Origin: Eubacteriales bacterium | GTDB taxonomy: Bacteria > Bacillota > Clostridia > Oscillospirales > CAG-272 | Assembly (NCBI GenBank): GCA_045542035.1 | Contig: JAZQKG010000037.1 | Span: 66-64,065 of the forward strand | Direction of reading: 5' to 3' | DNA: 64,000 nt | Shown here: one piece after another, positions 57,272 through 64,000 of the stretch | Position numbering within the stretch: the first letter of the stretch is position 1 | Layout: the number at the start of each line of letters is the position of its first letter | Translations under genes and position numbers: made by a program | The notes under the pieces: model-generated | Told to the model about the DNA's origin: nothing | The model's database searches: none | Seen by the model: only the letters and a program-made list of their open reading frames with translations

Positions 57272-57363
57272 AAATAGACCACCAATACTGGTTAAAAATT
57301 ATACCGCCTTAAACAAAGATAGACTTGTCAAGATATAATTTACCTTAGCGCCAAACATAAGTC

Positions 57364-57392
57364 TTGACTTCCTGCGATTTTAGAGATATAAT
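57364..57392 (+). promoter_or_regulatory. Near-consensus sigma-A promoter with no downstream CDS
   Basis: TTGACT (57364-57369), a 17-nt spacer, then TATAAT (57387-57392). Confidence 0.55.
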
Positions 57393-57398
57393 AGTATT

Positions 57399-57476
57399 GG
57401 AAGCACCGATGACGGTTGCTCCCTTCTGAGACGAATAACCGCCTGCAGCTGGAAACTTGAGGCGGTTATTTTTTTA
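57399..57476 (+). ncRNA. Candidate small RNA of about 78 nt (promoter-to-terminator unit)
   Basis: It starts about 7 nt after the -10 box. It ends in an 11-bp hairpin aataaccgcct / aggcggttatt (57434-57470) plus a T7 run. The only ORF inside encodes 6 aa. Confidence 0.3.
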
Positions 57477-57492
57477 AAATAGCAAACAATTA

Positions 57493-57529
57493 TTTTTTCG
57501 GCACTAAACGCGATTTGCTGCCGAAAAAA
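57493..57529. terminator. Bidirectional terminator-like hairpin
   Basis: ttttttcggca / tgccgaaaaaa, an 11-bp stem with a 15-nt loop. Confidence 0.5.
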
Positions 57530-57579
57530 TAAAAGAGTTTCAGCCAATAAAAGATAATTGAATTTTGCCGTTTCGAGTA

Positions 57580-57670
57580 AAAAAGTGTATACTTTTATCT
57601 ACGAAATATTACAAAAAGTCAAATACTACGTTTAAACGTGGTACGTTAGAAAAAGTGTATAGTTTTTCTA
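57580..57670 (+). repeat. Two direct repeats of about 21 nt, AAAAAGTGTATA(C/G)TTTT(A/T)TCTA, 70 bp apart
   Basis: Copies at 57580-57601 and 57650-57670. The palindrome acgtttaaacgt lies between them. Confidence 0.7.
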
Positions 57671-57737
57671 ACAAAATGATACCAATCAACGTAGCATAGA
57701 AAACACAAGATTAGTTAAAAAATGAAGACCGTTCGTT

Positions 57738-57767
57738 CTCCGAAGTTTTGCAGCTTCGGAGTTTTTT
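57738..57767 (+). terminator. Rho-independent terminator
   Basis: ctccgaag / cttcggag stem followed by tttttt. Confidence 0.65.
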
Positions 57768-57862
57768 ATTTTAGGACACCTTGTCCTCATCAAACATCAA
57801 AATTTGCATCGCTGTAATCGAAAAAAGAATGCGGATAAGTTCTCCAAAAATCGACAAAAAGA

Positions 57863-57891
57863 TTGATTTTACAACATAAATATGGTATAAT
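57863..57891 (+). promoter_or_regulatory. Promoter of the Zn-ribbon/DUF4145-like gene
   Basis: TTGATT, a 17-nt spacer, then TATAAT with an extended -10 TGg (57883-57891). Confidence 0.6.
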
Positions 57892-57917
57892 CATAAAAAA
57901 ACGAAGGAAACGTTAAG

Positions 57918-58769
57918 ATGGCTAAGTATAATGTTTTCGATAAATATGATGTGCAAAAACAAACAGAACTTCTTGTTCAAGTGTTGTCCGTAGAACCGCC
58001 TTACAAATCCATAGAATTTGACTACGGCTTGTATTCACACTTTGGGTTTGTAGAAAATCTTTGCATTGATTCATATTGCGAGAGTTGTGACAATGAAAAA
58101 ACTTTTAGTGCAGAAGTAAAAGACTGTTTTCAGCTTCTGATGACAGAAAATTTTAAAGTTAACGGAGGCCCTCCAGGACTTCGCAGACCTTCCCCGAATG
58201 AATTTTATAAAGATAAGGAATATTTTATAAACATATCGCTTCGTTGCGCAAAATGCGGAGAAACGCACTACTTCTCCCTACTGTTCAAAGGAAACACGAT
58301 TACAAAAATTGGACAATATCCCTCTTATTCAAAAGGAGAAGCGTGGAAATTAAAGAAATATAAAAATCTAATATCAAAGTATTATCCAGAACTAACAAAA
58401 TCATTAAACGCATATTCTCAAGGCATGGGTGTTGCAGCGTTCACTTATCTTAGGCGCATTTTAGAATATCTAATTGAAAGCAAGTTTAATGGGGATTCAG
58501 CGTGGAAGTTTATTGAGAAATTAAAGGAAGTTGAAAAGAACGAAACAATCATTCCTCCAGAACTGTCTTGTGTGAAAGAAGAAATATATTCTGTTTTAAG
58601 CAAAGGGATTCATGAGTATGAAGAAGCAGAGTGCATGGAGATTTATTTGTCTGTAAAATACGTTATAGAAAGAATGCTTGATTTGGAGTTGGAAAAAAAG
58701 GATCGCAATAAAAAAGCAAAACAAGCAATTGCAGCTATACAAGGAAAGCTTCAAAGCAAGAAAAAATGA
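57918..58769 (+). CDS. Zn-ribbon N-domain plus DUF4145-like helical C-domain protein (defence-associated, function unknown)
   Basis: CIDSYCESC ... CAKCGETH gives four Cys ligands. The C-terminal GMGVAAFTYLRRILEYLIE ... IYSVLSKGIHEYEE resembles the DUF4145 pattern (from memory). It has its own promoter and terminator. Confidence 0.6.
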   Translation: MAKYNVFDKYDVQKQTELLVQVLSVEPPYKSIEFDYGLYSHFGFVENLCIDSYCESCDNEKTFSAEVKDCFQLLMTENFKVNGGPPGLRRPSPNEFYKDKEYFINISLRCAKCGETHYFSLLFKGNTITKIGQYPSYSKGEAWKLKKYKNLISKYYPELTKSLNAYSQGMGVAAFTYLRRILEYLIESKFNGDSAWKFIEKLKEVEKNETIIPPELSCVKEEIYSVLSKGIHEYEEAECMEIYLSVKYVIERMLDLELEKKDRNKKAKQAIAAIQGKLQSKKK

Positions 58770-58784
58770 TGAAACATACCCAGC

Positions 58785-58819
58785 AAAACAGCCGAGTTTA
58801 GAAAAATCGGCTGTTTTTT
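58785..58819 (+). terminator. Terminator of the DUF4145-like gene
   Basis: aaaacagccga / tcggctgtttt stem running into a T-run. Confidence 0.75.
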
Positions 58820-58850
58820 ATTTATAATAACATTTTTTCCTTTGACTCTA

Positions 58851-58878
58851 TTGACATTACAGAAATTTGTAGTATAAT
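58851..58878 (+). promoter_or_regulatory. Promoter of the wHTH-RM-S-HEPN operon
   Basis: TTGACA (58851-58856), a 16-nt spacer, then TATAAT (58873-58878). Confidence 0.6.
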
Positions 58879-58936
58879 ATATGTATATAATGTTATAAAT
58901 TACTACATAATTATGTAATTATAAGGAGGTGCTTCT

Positions 58937-59233
58937 ATGGTTGAAAATTCAATAAAAGTCTTTGCTTCCGAGGAGTACTTCTTGCTGTTTTGGCTATCGG
59001 AAAACATTACCAAAAGCAGCAAAAAAATGTCTGTAAGATTTTCGCAGTCTGAAATAGCCGAAGAACTAAAGTGCAGTCCGACAACAATTAACAAACGAAT
59101 GCGTTTACTACAAGATGCAGATTGTATTGAGCTTGATGGCAAAAAAGGTTATACAATTACAGACAAAGGTAAAAATGTTATTAAAATAATGAAAAAAATA
59201 GAGAGTCTTGATGGAGGAAATCAAAATGACTGA
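58937..59233 (+). CDS. Small winged-helix DNA-binding protein (MarR/Crp-like wHTH)
   Basis: 98 aa. FSQSEIAEELKCSPTTINKRMRLLQDADCIELDGKKGYTITDKG is an HTH plus wing. AGGAGG RBS. Its stop overlaps the start of the next gene. Confidence 0.7.
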   Translation: MVENSIKVFASEEYFLLFWLSENITKSSKKMSVRFSQSEIAEELKCSPTTINKRMRLLQDADCIELDGKKGYTITDKGKNVIKIMKKIESLDGGNQND

Positions 59234-61244
59234 AAAGATTATTGTAATTCCCGAAGGCAAAATTTGCGACTACGTGGATGGTAAATTCAGACCTGACACA
59301 CCCGAAGAATATGTTCGTCAAACTATTGAAAAGCGCTTGGTGAATGAACATAAGTATCTCCCCAAACAGATCAAAATCGAATTTACTCTTCAGTTGGGTT
59401 CGCGTAAGCCTCGTGCTGATATTGTCATTTTTGATAAAGGGTGCACCGAGTTCACACAGGAGAATATTAGGATCATTATTGAATGTAAAAAAGAAACCGT
59501 AGAAGCTCGTAATGCAAAGGACGGTGTTGAGCAGCTGAAGTCGTATATGTCTGCGTGCCCGAACTGTGAATGGGGTATGTGGACTAACGGAAAGCAGAAA
59601 GAGGTGTTCCGCAAATTCGTTAACGATAAAGGTCAGATTGAATTCATGGATTATAATGATATTCCTTCTGCCGATGGCAACCTTGATGATGTTGACCGCC
59701 CCAAGAGAACTTCTCTCAAAAACGCATATGACGACAACCTCCTTTTTGTGTTCAAGACCTGCCATAATCATATTCATGTCAATGATGGTTTGCAAAAGCA
59801 GCCTGCGTTCTTTGAATTGCTTAAGGTTATTTTCTGCAAGATTGAGGACGAGCGTAATATCCCTTCTCCGTTGGAATTCTATACTACATCCAAAGAGCGT
59901 TCCAATCCCGATGGACAGTTAACGGTTAAAAAGCGTATTTCCAAGATTTTTGAGCGCGTAAAGAAAAAGCACGGCAAAATTTTTGACTCTAATGATGAGA
60001 TCAAACTTTCTCCGCGCAGCTTGGCGTATATTGTTAGCGAATTGCAGAAGTATAGCCTTCTCAATACCAATATCGATATTAAGGGCAAGGCATATGAGGA
60101 AATTGTAGGAGCAAATCTGCGTGGCGACCGTGGCGAATTCTTCACCCCTCGTAATGTGATGAAGATGGTCGTTGAAATGATCAATCCGAAGATGGAAGAA
60201 CGTGTGCTGGACAGCTCGTGCGGCACCGGCGGTTTCTTAGTTACCGCTATGACTCACGTTATCGCTCAATTGGAAGCAGATTTTTCCGAGCAACTTGGAT
60301 GCCCGAGAAAAGATTGGGATAATGATTCCATTCGTGCTTTCAATGATAAAATTTCCGAAATGGCAGCACAATACTATTACGGATTTGATATTAACCCCGA
60401 CCTTGTCAAAGCTACCAAAATGAACATGGTCATGAACAATGACGGTAGCGGTAATATTCTACAAACGAACTCACTCCTTCCTCCTCACGAGTGGTCGGAT
60501 GAATTCCGCACAAAGTTGGCAGAAGCTCTTGGTGTGGATAAGAGCGAAATTCGCAATCATAAGACGATTGAATTCTTCAATGTAATCGTAACAAATCCGC
60601 CTTTCGGCAGCAAAATTCCCGTAAAAGACAAGAATATTCTTGAACAGTTTGAACTCGCACATATTTGGGAGAATAATAAGAAAACAGGCGTATGGACTAT
60701 GACAGATCGTCTGCAATCATCTGTTCCTCCCGAAATTCTCTTCATTGAGCGTTGCACACAGCTCTTAGTTCCCGGCGGTAGAATGGGTATTGTTTTGCCT
60801 GACTCAATCCTTGGATCGCCTGGACTTGGATATATCCGCGAATGGCTCATCAAAAATCATCGTATTATCGGAAGCGTAGACCTTCATGTAGATACCTTCC
60901 AACCTCGTAATGGCACACAGACCTCCGTATTGTTCTTGCAGAAGAAAACACAAGAGCAAAAAGATGCCGAAGCCAAGAGTGGAACAATGGCTGATTATAA
61001 TATCTTTATGGCAATGGTAGAAAAAGTTGGTCATGATAAGCGTGGTAATCCTACTTTCAAACGCGATAAGGAAGGTAATGAAATACTCGTTCCCGACACT
61101 AATAGCGTTCTTGTTCTTGACGAAACAAGCGATGGTAGCACCACAGTTGCACACGAGCAGAAGAAAAAGGTAGAGGATGATCAGACTCCCGACGTTCCGG
61201 AGATTTTTGCGGAATGGAAAAAGCAGGAGGGCATTTCATGGTAA
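59226..61244 (+). CDS. Fused PD-(D/E)xK nuclease-like (HsdR N-terminal type) domain and gamma-class N6-adenine DNA methyltransferase (BcgI-A / Type IIB-like RM subunit)
   Basis: ADIVIFD (D at 59418) ... IIIECKK (E at 59481, K at 59487). FFTPRNV. Motif I DSSCGTGGF (60210-60236). Motif IV NPPFG (60594-60608). GGAGG lies 8 nt before the ATG at 59226. Confidence 0.8.
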   Translation: MTEKIIVIPEGKICDYVDGKFRPDTPEEYVRQTIEKRLVNEHKYLPKQIKIEFTLQLGSRKPRADIVIFDKGCTEFTQENIRIIIECKKETVEARNAKDGVEQLKSYMSACPNCEWGMWTNGKQKEVFRKFVNDKGQIEFMDYNDIPSADGNLDDVDRPKRTSLKNAYDDNLLFVFKTCHNHIHVNDGLQKQPAFFELLKVIFCKIEDERNIPSPLEFYTTSKERSNPDGQLTVKKRISKIFERVKKKHGKIFDSNDEIKLSPRSLAYIVSELQKYSLLNTNIDIKGKAYEEIVGANLRGDRGEFFTPRNVMKMVVEMINPKMEERVLDSSCGTGGFLVTAMTHVIAQLEADFSEQLGCPRKDWDNDSIRAFNDKISEMAAQYYYGFDINPDLVKATKMNMVMNNDGSGNILQTNSLLPPHEWSDEFRTKLAEALGVDKSEIRNHKTIEFFNVIVTNPPFGSKIPVKDKNILEQFELAHIWENNKKTGVWTMTDRLQSSVPPEILFIERCTQLLVPGGRMGIVLPDSILGSPGLGYIREWLIKNHRIIGSVDLHVDTFQPRNGTQTSVLFLQKKTQEQKDAEAKSGTMADYNIFMAMVEKVGHDKRGNPTFKRDKEGNEILVPDTNSVLVLDETSDGSTTVAHEQKKKVEDDQTPDVPEIFAEWKKQEGISW

Positions 61245-62707
61245 ACGGAAATTTAGCATATAAGCTGAACGACGCTTCGGGCGAAGAAGTCGTTGTAAAC
61301 GAAGCACCATTAAAATGGTGTTCGGTTACCTTGTCGGATGTTGTTTCGCGCGGCAAACGATTGGAAGCGAGCGTGTTTGATGTTGAAGCGAAACAAGCGC
61401 GCCAAATAATTTATAATGGAAAATATGATGTTACCACAGTTGGTGGAAATGATGGACTCACCTCATCATATACAGGCGCGCGCTTTAAGCGTGTTTGGGT
61501 AAAAACATCAGAATATCCCATATTCCAACCCTCATCCATCGTTGATATTAAACCCTCTCCTGATGGATATATTTCAAAACGCACCCAAACTAACATTGAC
61601 GCTTTGAGAGTTAAAGAAGGACAAGTCTTAATGACTTGCTCCGGAACGATTGGGAAACTTTCGTATGTATCAAAAACATTGGATAATACAATATTTAGCC
61701 ACGATTTGTTGAGAATTGATTGCAAAGAGCCAACAGACGCAGGATATTTGTATGCATATCTTAAAAGCAAAATCGGCAATAAAATTCTTCTTACCAACAG
61801 TTATGGCGCGGTTATTACACATATCGAACCTGAGCATTTAGCTACTGTTCCGATCCCTAATGCTCCTGCTACAATCAAAAGAAAAATCCATACTCTTATT
61901 GCAGAATCTTATCGCCTTCGCGATGAATCCAACGATTTGATCGACGAGGCAACGCGACTTTTGATAGAAGAACTTCATTTGCCTTCTGTGGATGAACTAA
62001 ATCCCGTTAGCAAAGCAGCCCCTGTTGAAACATTTAGCGTAAAATTGAGCCAAATGGCAGGTCGTGCAGATGCTTCGTATCATGTACCGATTGTTGATGG
62101 AATTGTTGCGTATTTAAAAGAGTATGCTGAAGAAGTAACCACAATCGGAGATAACCGTATAAGCAAAGAAGTAATACTTCCTGGACGCTTCAAAAGAATT
62201 TATGTTGATGAGGGCTTTGGTAGAGTATTTATTGGCGGCAAACAATTAGGAGAGTTAGATCCGAGCAACAAAAAATATCTCTCTCTTACACATCATGGAG
62301 AACGCATAGGTAAGCAGCTTGAATTACATGAGAATATGACACTTATTACCTGTAGTGGTACTATCGGAAAGGTGACATTAGTAGGTAAGCAATGGGAAAA
62401 TTGGACTGCTAATCAGCATATTATTCGTATCGTTCCTGCTGATGAAACCATTGCAGGATATATTAACATTTTCTTGTCTTCTGACTATGGACATGAGCTT
62501 ATTACGAGATACACCTACGGTTCTGTTGTAGATGAAATTGATGATAACCATGTTCGTCAAATTCCTATTCCTCTGCTAAAAAACAAAGAAATTCAAGCTC
62601 GCATCAACGAGTTGGCACTTCTGGCGAACCAAAAACGTTATGAGGCATATCTGCTTGAACAAAGAGCCTTGAAAGTGATGGATGACGAAGTCATCTATGC
62701 CAAGTGA
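61238..62707 (+). CDS. Restriction-modification specificity (HsdS-like) subunit with two target-recognition domains
   Basis: Two repeated halves, each beginning with a W/F-x-x-V-x-LS segment (WCSVTLSDVV and FSVKLSQMAG) and ending in a helical spacer (IKRKIHTLIAESYRLRDESNDLIDEATRLL and IQARINELALLANQKRYEAYLLEQRAL). The ATG overlaps the upstream stop. Confidence 0.8.
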   Translation: MVNGNLAYKLNDASGEEVVVNEAPLKWCSVTLSDVVSRGKRLEASVFDVEAKQARQIIYNGKYDVTTVGGNDGLTSSYTGARFKRVWVKTSEYPIFQPSSIVDIKPSPDGYISKRTQTNIDALRVKEGQVLMTCSGTIGKLSYVSKTLDNTIFSHDLLRIDCKEPTDAGYLYAYLKSKIGNKILLTNSYGAVITHIEPEHLATVPIPNAPATIKRKIHTLIAESYRLRDESNDLIDEATRLLIEELHLPSVDELNPVSKAAPVETFSVKLSQMAGRADASYHVPIVDGIVAYLKEYAEEVTTIGDNRISKEVILPGRFKRIYVDEGFGRVFIGGKQLGELDPSNKKYLSLTHHGERIGKQLELHENMTLITCSGTIGKVTLVGKQWENWTANQHIIRIVPADETIAGYINIFLSSDYGHELITRYTYGSVVDEIDDNHVRQIPIPLLKNKEIQARINELALLANQKRYEAYLLEQRALKVMDDEVIYAK

Positions 62708-62716
62708 GGTGGAATA

Positions 62717-63502
62717 ATGTCAAATTATAAAGATTGGATTAAAGCTGTAGATATACAGGTTGACTATTATTCCGCCTTTATGAAGGCGTGGATTGCGTTC
62801 AATGCATGGTATGAGAGCGGTGAAATTGAAGGCAAAACAGATAAAGACAAAATTGATTATATTGCCGATAAAACTAACAGATTTAAGACATATATTGAAA
62901 ACCTTTTGACATCCGAGGACACCGAAGGAATATCGTTTCGGGAAAGTGTTGGTAAGTTACATAATAGCCTTCTCAATGCCCCCATTACAACGCAGGAATA
63001 TGTTGGGGTAAGACAAGCTATATCCTTTTCTTCCGTTGCTATTAAGAACAAAAACAACCTAAATAAGTTTGAATATTGTACTATTCAATATAAGTGCGAA
63101 AGAGTACGCGGAAAGATTATTACGACTGTCAGCAAAAAAGCTACGGGTGTTGATCTGTTTAGATTTGAACAAGAAGAATACAACAAAGATGAATTAATCC
63201 AACAATCTACATTTTTAGCTTTAACGGCAACTCAACAGAACAAATGCGAAGAATGCTATAAAGCGCTTGAGCCATACATAATTGAAAGTATAATAGATCC
63301 GAACCCCGGAGATCATTCAAAAAAGATGGGAGCTTATAATTTCATTAGTGACACGTCTAAAATATGTTCAGCAATCGTAGTTATTCTATATTTGCTAAGA
63401 TGTGGTTTAGCTCACGGTGACGTGTCTCCAGATGAGGCTTCAAGTAAAGTGTATCGCTATGCTTATGAAGTTCTTGTTCCGCCATTAAAAAAATTAAAAT
63501 AA
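62717..63502 (+). CDS. Uncharacterised helical protein with a C-terminal Rx4H motif (candidate HEPN-like effector)
   Basis: 261 aa. R228-CGLA-H233 lies at 63398-63415 inside LYLLRCGLAHGD. GAGGTGG RBS, 9 nt after the S-subunit stop. Confidence 0.5.
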   Translation: MSNYKDWIKAVDIQVDYYSAFMKAWIAFNAWYESGEIEGKTDKDKIDYIADKTNRFKTYIENLLTSEDTEGISFRESVGKLHNSLLNAPITTQEYVGVRQAISFSSVAIKNKNNLNKFEYCTIQYKCERVRGKIITTVSKKATGVDLFRFEQEEYNKDELIQQSTFLALTATQQNKCEECYKALEPYIIESIIDPNPGDHSKKMGAYNFISDTSKICSAIVVILYLLRCGLAHGDVSPDEASSKVYRYAYEVLVPPLKKLK

Positions 63503-63560
63503 ACTCTGGACTTTGCGGAAGTTATGTGGTATTGTGTTGTGCTAACAGGAGGTGCGACCA

Positions 63561-63827
63561 ATGGAAAGCATAATCAAAGAATTGTGGCATGGCAATATTA
63601 TACCGCAAGAGGACAGCAGAACGAACTCGAAGGAGATGAAAGAGCTCCTTGGATACATGGCGCGTCATCACGAAGACCTCGAAAAGACCTTTACCGAGGA
63701 ACAGAAAGAAATCTTCGAGAAGTTCCACGACTGCTGGAGCGAGTACGCAAGTCTCGGTGAGTGTGCGATATTCTGCTACGCATTCAAGCTCGGTATGAGA
63801 ATCGCAATCGAAACGTTAACTAAATAA
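63561..63827 (+). CDS. Small conserved hypothetical protein of a type common in Firmicute conjugative elements
   Basis: MESIIKELWHGNIIPQE...FCYAFKLGMRIAIE with AGGAGG 8 nt upstream. GC content is visibly higher than in the preceding operon. The family assignment is from memory only. Confidence 0.55.
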   Translation: MESIIKELWHGNIIPQEDSRTNSKEMKELLGYMARHHEDLEKTFTEEQKEIFEKFHDCWSEYASLGECAIFCYAFKLGMRIAIETLTK

Positions 63828-63833
63828 GCGAGA

Positions 63834-63866
63834 GGGATAGGTTCGACCAAGAGTCTATCCCTTTTT
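63834..63866 (+). terminator. Rho-independent terminator
   Basis: gggatag / ctatccc stem followed by ttttt. Confidence 0.6.
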
Positions 63867-64000
63867 GTGTTCTTTTTCCAATGATAAAAATAGCCTTAAA
63901 TTTGCCTCGTGTCGAAAATAAGAGTCAACTAAGGCAAGTATCCCTCAAATAGTTTTCCAGGCGATTGTAGAGAGTTTTTGCCCCCGAAAATCCACCTTTT

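Follow-up and report, generated by a model that had tools for sequence, protein, structure and literature searches.

Close to the end of a 64,000-nucleotide (nt) stretch of DNA from an Eubacteriales bacterium (the window; bases 66-64065 of the 64.7-kb contig JAZQKG010000037.1), four forward-strand genes form an operon in which a small DNA-binding protein (gene 1) precedes a two-gene restriction-modification (R-M) core (gene 2, RM; gene 3, S) and an unannotated fourth gene, here called X. We read this operon as a self-sufficient Type IIB-like R-M module that carries, as a plug-in under a small controller, a PrrC-like latent layer of ribonuclease (RNase) of the HEPN type, and give this reading a probability of about 0.6. 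The assembly (1.55 Mb in 106 contigs, 42% G+C, 87% complete) is fragmented at this point, with the contig stopping approximately 640 nt past the window. Despite the nearby contig end, the flanks show that the cassette is complete. The strict order RM-S-X is repeated in more than 50 independent contigs of the window clade, and the arrangement is not one of chance.

A first-pass annotation, made from the sequence letters, had described a four-gene operon and suggested that a second, RNase-type or abortive layer is wired into an R-M module. The genes, their order and their coupling are real. They do not make up an obligate unit, as the regulator slot and the fourth slot are both swappable and X is absent from half of the close relatives. 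The second layer is supported by the conserved linkage of X and by its Rx4H motif, while the RNase activity itself is something that we infer.

Restriction-modification core and gene X

Gene 2 (59226-61244, forward strand) encodes a nuclease-methyltransferase fusion of 672 amino acids (aa), identified by Pfam, NCBIfam, PADLOC and PDB matches. An HsdR-type PD-(D/E)xK nuclease domain occupies aa 26-147 (59301-59666; Pfam HSDR_N_2, 1.8e-27), and a gamma-class N6-adenine methyltransferase domain occupies aa 283-580 (60072-60965; Pfam N6_Mtase, 9e-32, and Eco57I, 3e-11), with the motifs DSSCGTGGF and NPPFG present in the translation. This is the order of domains that had been proposed on the basis of the D...ExK motif and the methyltransferase motifs. 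The nuclease residues given at that time as D71/E92/K94 are likewise real and invariant, but their numbering from the ATG at 59226 is D65/E86/K88. It was found that E28, D65, E86, K88 and Q103xxxY107 are invariant among gene 2 homologues of only 35-38% identity. Because the D...ExK...QxxxY signature of HsdR-type nuclease domains is kept at this level of divergence, the nuclease site is under selection. Gene 2 matches NCBIfam MAD2 (NF047738) over its full length at 649.7 bits, below the cut-off of 720, as well as the PADLOC MTase_II model PDLC03318 (3e-164). Its best PDB match is RM.BsaXI (8w0p, 7e-35), an alignment covering the methyltransferase region only and leaving the nuclease region unaligned.

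Gene 3 (61238-62707, forward strand) encodes a 489-aa S subunit with two target-recognition domains (TRDs), matched by Pfam Methylase_S in two separate stretches, in keeping with its earlier description as a duplicated-TRD HsdS-like protein. NCBIfam MAD5 (NF047740) matches over the full length at 355.8 bits (cut-off 400), and further matches are to PADLOC mad5 (1e-31) and to Specificity models. Neither this locus nor any of more than 100 related loci contains an HsdR-type helicase, as the first-pass annotation had noted for the locus itself. The BcgI-like Type IIB layout that it had proposed fits the fused nuclease-methyltransferase, the separate two-TRD S, the lack of a motor and RM.BsaXI as the best PDB match. 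Genes 2 and 3 are classified as an R-M pair that is Type IIB-like and comes from the MAD2/MAD5 lineage, from which the eight-gene MADS defence system is also built, and not as MADS itself.

Gene X (62717-63502, forward strand) encodes a 261-aa protein of an unannotated HEPN-like family, described here by a family profile and an AlphaFold model. Searches of Pfam, NCBIfam, PADLOC and PHROGs found no match for X, and RefSeq labels its homologues from E. coli and Klebsiella as hypothetical proteins. At the 90% identity level, 175 clusters are at least 51% identical to X, and a search with the family profile recovered 419 representative clusters at E<=1e-3, nearly all of them stand-alone proteins of 255-285 aa. 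Longer homologues, considered as possible domain fusions, proved to be chimeric or deleted assemblies in which the RM N-terminus or S had been joined to X. No phage-borne copy was found in 50,697 phage records, and X was present in none of 400 other sampled genomes of the host phylum. When 117 diverse members were compared with the PADLOC models, that for PD-T4-2 included, at E<=0.01, only three single chance-level hits resulted.

Across these 117 members, which share 23-60% identity, the sole invariant residues are N29, R228 and H233. The last two delimit the Rx4H motif of the window protein (LRCGLAHGD; codons R228-C-G-L-A-H233 at 63398-63415, forward strand), and the family motif is Y-x-L-R-[N/C]-x-L-F-H-G-E. 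The residue following the arginine is Asn in 53 members and Cys in 64, and half of the family therefore has the textbook HEPN motif RNxxxH. An AlphaFold2 model based on a 51-sequence alignment (predicted local distance difference test score, pLDDT, 91.7) predicts N-terminal helices, with N29 in the helix spanning residues 17-32, a beta-rich insert at approximately 88-212, a helix at 213-232 and a last helix at 240-260. In this model the motif takes the place that Rx4-6H has in HEPN RNases: the end of the penultimate helix contains R228, and the loop before the last helix opens with H233. Inserts between helices 2 and 3 are frequent in HEPN domains (PMC3710099), and the predicted structure of X is consistent with the published HEPN layout in the placement of the motif and in the large insert between N- and C-terminal helices, a correspondence in the order of elements only. 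The Rx4H motif picked out by the first-pass annotation is thus a real family feature in a HEPN-like position. The HEPN-like label it gave to gene 4 agrees with motif and element order, and HEPN membership was confirmed by no profile or fold search. We call X HEPN-like and probably a new HEPN family.

X is under purifying selection. The ratio of non-synonymous to synonymous substitution rates (dN/dS) is approximately 0.15 for X compared with 0.03 for RM, for the 23 pairs with unsaturated synonymous sites (these sites are saturated in most pairs). The mean pairwise identity in 42 distinct RM-S-X cassettes is 86% for RM and 61% for both S and X. Variation in X is concentrated in residues 110-215, and residues 15-32 and 220-260 are conserved. 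This pattern points to a protein under selection whose putative active site is conserved while its surface changes fast, the behaviour expected of a component that phages encounter.

The four genes are tightly coupled. A hairpin with 15-nt arms (93% complementary, 3-nt loop) followed by a T-run (58785-58817, forward strand) ends the previous gene, and the operon therefore has its own start. The near-consensus promoter reported by the first-pass annotation is a 12/12 consensus sigma-70-type promoter (TTGACA-16-TATAAT, 58851-58878, forward strand), the sole such match within 57300-64000. The overlapping or nearly touching gene boundaries were likewise recovered, with all coordinates and quoted motifs verified in the sequence and translations. 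The last 8 nt of gene 1 overlap the gene 2 ATG at 59226, the gene 3 ATG overlaps the gene 2 stop (ATGGTAA, 61238-61244) downstream of AGGAGG, and gene 4 starts 9 nt past the gene 3 stop, with GAGGTGG upstream of its start. The RM-S junction in the window (61205-61244) and in 67 variants from related loci follows the pattern TGGAA-N5-AGGAGGG-N5-6-(A/G)TGGTAA. It is unusually conserved at the nucleotide level, which is compatible with coupled re-initiation. Synthesis of S by a -1 frameshift from the end of RM was also considered and is unsupported in the window clade. An A5G run, a possible site for a -1 slip, occurs in only approximately 20 of the 67 variants, and AGGAGG with an ATG or GTG overlapping the stop occurs in all 67.

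Gene 1 (58937-59233, forward strand) encodes a 98-aa winged helix-turn-helix (wHTH) protein and is the probable operon controller. Pfam matches to HTH_Crp_2 (4e-7), HTH_11 (6e-6) and HTH_24 (7e-5) support its original assignment as a wHTH protein. In related loci the gene 1 slot, which also overlaps the RM start, holds a ribbon-helix-helix (RHH)-like protein of 46-67 aa, an XRE helix-turn-helix (HTH) protein of 85 aa, an HTH protein of 100-120 aa or a wHTH protein. This non-homologous replacement of small DNA-binding proteins agrees with a controller role. Between the -10 box and the ribosome-binding site lies a palindrome (58899-58922) with 12+12-nt arms (83% complementary), centred on a perfect 14-bp core, TACATAATTATGTA. 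Because the region is AT-rich, we treat the palindrome as weak evidence and as no more than a candidate operator for the wHTH protein.

X as an optional module and its partners

The presence of X was scanned by searching metagenome contigs with gene 2, which yielded 80 loci at 79-91% identity (loci are given below as L-numbers). Sixty of these have a complete S gene and room downstream, and X is present in 30 and absent from the other 30. A comparison of closely similar cassettes reveals the change directly: the RM genes of L054 and L055 are 95-96% identical to that of L002, and the cassettes occupy the same chromosomal site, but approximately 873 nt starting right after the S stop are missing. 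In some other X-less cassettes, the slot 19-26 nt past S holds either GajA and GajB of the Gabija system (4.5e-108 and 1.8e-91, respectively) or the HEC-01 pair, and in many it holds nothing. The HEC-01 pair consists of an AAA_21 ATPase (8e-145), which also matches PADLOC mad3 (5e-32), and a DUF4276 partner (1e-75). Half of the close RM-S cassettes lack X, many with an empty slot, which indicates that RM-S can function on its own. The slot behind S serves as a plug-in position for defence modules of a second layer, and the Gabija and HEC-01 genes found there appear to be co-transcribed with the R-M genes. Complete Gabija or HEC-01 systems are seen in L056 (3873-7831), L057 and L065 (9495-11239), in RM-S cassettes that are 88-90% identical to that of the window.

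More distant X clades were inspected after clustering, with one representative looked up per clade; two further clades are represented by contigs too short to judge. In nine of nine informative clades, the neighbours of X are an RM+S pair, a DUF262 NTPase or both, so that the linkage of gene 4 homologues to restriction genes, which the first-pass annotation had put forward as a check, is conserved. The gene order varies. X follows the pair in L030 (RM-S-X), separates its members in L038 (RM-X-S), follows S in L037 (S-X) and is found within MTase-S-S-X-GIY-YIG/RAMA in L036 (MTase, methyltransferase). L133 and L134 combine both partner types as RM-S-X-DUF262, with overlapping stop and start codons, and L033 and L039 contain X-DUF262. 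Every RM partner of X that could be checked has an HSDR_N_2 domain. The single DUF262 partners (approximately 600 aa) keep DGQQR and have neither a Pfam GmrSD_C hit nor a (D/E)HxxP motif. Among the top 25 matches listed, the DUF262 partner of X matches HEC-06, Orf5 and SspE models, not PD-T4-2. A Klebsiella IncF plasmid and three E. coli chromosomal copies on integrative and conjugative elements (ICEs) contain RM-S-X, a 510-nt gap, a DUF262 gene and a DUF262/GmrSD_C gene. As X is linked to two kinds of DNA-sensing partner, control of X by the partner is suggested.

Several further observations concern the enterobacterial loci. In L048 (9278-12507), L050 and L051 (10302-13531), the cassette is followed by genes for a 426-aa DUF262+DUF7834 protein and a 650-aa GmrSD_N+GmrSD_C protein. 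In E. coli, the DUF262 pair forms the end of an ICE that contains trbJ and trbL, and adjoins yfgI. On the Klebsiella plasmid NZ_OV754011 (L049, 5826-6981) and the E. coli plasmids NZ_CP091757 and NZ_CP151001, an IS1 insertion has deleted RM and S together with the N-terminal half of X, while the DUF262 pair downstream is still intact. No copy was seen with a whole X after loss of RM-S, an anecdotal observation that would agree with X needing a partner.

Proposed mechanism and rival readings

In the model that we favour, a swappable small DNA-binding controller, here the wHTH protein, is translationally coupled to gene 2. By analogy with BsaXI, a single two-TRD S subunit would be joined by two RM chains to give (RM)2S, and the complex would methylate a bipartite host site and cut unmethylated incoming DNA, presumably on both sides of the site. 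X would most likely be a HEPN-type, metal-independent RNase with a predicted active site of N29, R228 and H233, and its central, fast-evolving beta-rich insert may serve as a sensing or docking surface. X would stay silent while its DNA-sensing partner (RM-S here, the DUF262 NTPase in other clades) works normally, and would cut RNA and stop growth once the partner reports infection or is disabled. The logic proposed for X is that of PrrC with EcoprrI and of PD-T4-2 (DUF262 + HEPN).

Type IIB enzymes provide a close parallel for the layout of the R-M core. As in BsaXI and BcgI, an N-terminal PD-(D/E)xK nuclease is fused to a gamma-class N6-adenine methyltransferase, with a separate two-TRD S and no ATP-dependent motor. 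BsaXI, a Type IIB enzyme of (RM)2S composition, cleaves DNA through its own N-terminal E/D/ExK domain, and its E73/D90/E105/K107 site is comparable to the four-residue E...D...ExK site of the window RM (PMC11997821). In contrast to BsaXI, the window nuclease belongs to the HsdR N-terminal family (HSDR_N_2, QxxxY) and does not align with the BsaXI nuclease region, and the RM chain is shorter (672 versus 916 aa). Neither BsaXI nor BcgI has an X-like partner.

The closest named relatives of RM and S are MAD2 and MAD5 of MADS (mad1-mad8 of P. aeruginosa SMC4386). The small DNA-binding first gene of the operon is in the role of mad1, and MADS, too, methylates a bipartite site. However, both window proteins score below the NCBIfam cut-offs, and X has no counterpart in MADS. 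MAD3, MAD4 and MAD6-8 are absent from the locus and from more than 100 related loci. Genome-wide, mad6 is absent under conditions in which control genomes gave hits, the mad7 search gave no hit in the genome or in the controls, and the mad8 model matches generic ABC ATPases. The MADS detection model makes MAD6-8 mandatory and treats MAD1, MAD2 and MAD5 as accessory because they are akin to ordinary R-M parts (bioRxiv 10.1101/2023.03.30.534895). As the defining MAD6-8 are missing and MAD2 and MAD5 fall under their cut-offs, identification of the operon as MADS was rejected. The operon matches no catalogued system, as PADLOC and NCBIfam name only RM and S; the first-pass annotation, too, had been able to name no described system with exactly this four-gene content.

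The parallels for X lie elsewhere. As with PrrC in EcoprrI, and with RloC, a gene for a HEPN-type RNase would adjoin the S gene, either within an R-M operon or as its last gene, and the proposed logic would be that of a latent RNase held by the R-M complex and freed when a phage disables R-M. Such a latent, R-M-held RNase has been suggested for no fewer than 16 HEPN clades with R-M linkage (PMC3710099). Unlike PrrC and RloC, X lacks an ABC-ATPase domain, a P-loop and any ATPase match; neither in sequence nor in fold is it detectably similar to PrrC, and its partner is a motor-less RM-S rather than a Type Ic enzyme. The validated PD-T4-2 system of E. coli ECOR65 consists of a DUF262 protein lacking DUF1524 and a HEPN protein (PMC10952713), a composition resembling the X-DUF262 pairs of several X clades (L033, L133). 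The window locus has no DUF262 gene, and no PADLOC model matches X.

A number of results weigh against the favoured reading. Pfam, HEPN models included, returned no match for the 117 diverse X members or for five further divergent ones. A PDB profile search with X gave chance hits to histidine kinases only (E approximately 1.4), and Foldseek with the X model found nothing significant (best E 0.23 in PDB and 0.02 in BFVD). A relationship between X and the DUF4145-like gene upstream of the operon (57918-58769) was tried and rejected, with an hhalign probability of 0.7%. Co-transcription is no proof of coupling, because Gabija and HEC-01, which work on their own, are also tightly spaced after S. 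In the enterobacterial loci the adjacency of X and DUF262 is weak evidence, because of the 510-nt gap and because the pair is similar to TgvAB, a Type IV system that acts independently and is frequently nested within R-M clusters (PMC11411939). Coverage of gene 2 by metatranscriptome contigs is fragmentary, and these contigs contain nothing usable on X. Finally, MADS defence needs MAD3, MAD4 and MAD6-8 although MAD2 has the same N-terminal domain (bioRxiv 10.1101/2023.03.30.534895), which makes the nuclease activity of the RM chain alone uncertain.

This requirement of MADS for further genes is also the starting point for a rival in which RM-S is mainly a methylation and recognition core, as MAD2/MAD5, X is the restriction effector acting on DNA or RNA, and the RM nuclease domain is supporting or idle. 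Gabija-like or OLD-like modules would then take the role of X in sister cassettes. The full-length MAD2/MAD5 matches would suit such an arrangement, as would the OLD-type ATPase-nuclease modules in the slot of relatives and the mad3 match of the HEC-01 ATPase. It would, however, turn the approximately half of close cassettes that lack X, many of them effector-less, into orphan methylases with perfectly conserved E/D/ExK/QxxxY residues, and BsaXI, with the same layout, performs its own cleavage. We consider this rival improbable. Equally improbable in our estimation is a non-catalytic X, acting as an assembly factor, establishment modulator or anti-restriction decoy, with the Rx4H-like motif having a structural role. 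Such a protein could be dispensable for the cassette, as X is, could evolve faster than RM, as the mean pairwise identities indicate, and need not resemble a known nuclease, none having been detected. Against it, the only residues invariant at 23% identity are an Asn, an Arg and a His in a motif of the HEPN active-site type, whereas in a binding protein conservation would be expected in patches of the hydrophobic core or the interface.

A less remote alternative, which we nevertheless regard as unlikely, is that X acts autonomously, as a single-gene abortive-infection or defence protein that sits within R-M and DUF262 operons, uses their promoter and senses phage through its variable insert with no input from RM-S. 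Defence genes do nest in other systems yet work alone, as described for HEC systems in Hma (bioRxiv 10.1101/2024.01.29.577857) and for TgvAB in a Type I operon (PMC11411939). X shares with these a discrete extra gene in a fixed slot, with sister loci carrying other cargo (X, Gabija, HEC-01). The independence of Gabija and HEC-01, the gain and loss of X as a discrete cassette and the separate fast-evolving insert, which could be a sensor, all fit an autonomous protein. The embedded systems occur in many contexts, whereas X is seen only with RM-S or DUF262. These are its only two partner types (RM-S with HSDR_N_2, or DUF262) in the nine informative clades, in Bacillota, Bacteroidota-like and Enterobacteriaceae contexts, and among the clades examined X was not found alone or in BREX, Hma or classical Type I operons. 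Its position between RM and S in L038 and the overlap of both its ends with neighbouring genes in L133 also argue against autonomy. The latent, partner-controlled RNase remains our preferred reading. A bolder extension of it, which we put forward only tentatively, is that RM-S of the MAD2/MAD5 type is a carrier platform taking interchangeable effectors after S (X, Gabija, a HEC-01-type ATPase-Toprim and, in the fullest form, MADS). X, as a new HEPN family, would then be a universal adapter-effector that physically reads the state of (RM)2S or of a nuclease-less DUF262 NTPase and turns failed or inhibited restriction into RNA cleavage and abortive infection.

Surroundings of the operon and significance of the X family

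Downstream of X, the first terminator-like hairpin past the operon (63830-63865, forward strand; 15 pairs followed by a T-run) comes after a small gene of 88 aa (63561-63827, forward strand), and no terminator-like site was found between gene 4 and this gene. It is a neighbour from the surrounding mobile element and lies outside the conserved cassette. Homologues of the 88-aa protein (MESIIKELWHGNIIPQ...) occur upstream, downstream or on the opposite strand of the cassette in L005, L009, L014 and L022, and gut-sequencing contigs, including two metatranscriptomes, stack far deeper on the 88-aa gene than on the operon. The gene appears to be a conserved component of the mobile element that carries the cassette. 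In L001 (2428-6110), the cassette adjoins genes for a serine recombinase and a Mob_Pre relaxase, and the cassette is found at the same rRNA/tRNA U5-methyltransferase site in L002 and L003, where the recombinase and relaxase genes are missing. This difference indicates that the cassette moves on small mobilisable elements.

Two further genes were noted in the course of the analysis. The stand-alone gene upstream of the operon (57918-58769, forward strand) encodes a 283-aa protein with a zinc ribbon and a helical C-terminal domain, and has its own terminator. Its family comprises more than 150 clusters, and a precomputed Pfam DUF4145 hit is found in only one among the 120 members listed. The invariant residues include C110, C113, R179, R180, E183, S228, K229 and H232, and the gene may be a separate single-gene defence candidate. 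Downstream of an X-less RM-S pair in L114 (6078-7340), and also in L109, lies a gene for a 420-aa protein with the motif YRNGILHG (RNxxxH) and no Pfam or PADLOC match, preceded by an XRE HTH gene and followed by a KilA-N/PDC-S22 gene. The gene is possibly a further HEPN-like defence gene that has escaped annotation.

That latent HEPN RNases provide R-M systems with a second line of defence was put forward in 2013. The R-M core described here is of a known kind and the association of HEPN proteins with R-M is published, whereas the X family is unnamed and uncharacterised and has specific partners. To our knowledge, PrrC supplies nearly all of the experimental support for latent HEPN RNases in R-M systems. 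X is a good candidate for a back-up weapon against phages, one that can be tested, and not an entirely new type of system. The family makes a clean test case, with natural cassettes that contain or lack X and are otherwise 95-96% identical, and with an R-M partner of only two subunits. Since E. coli chromosomes and a Klebsiella IncF plasmid contain copies of X, the genes are directly movable into laboratory E. coli. If the favoured reading is true, annotation pipelines would gain X as a new defence gene, a shared modular design would join Type IIB-like R-M, DUF262 systems and MADS, and the family would provide a way to study how an RNase is silenced by a DNA-recognition complex.

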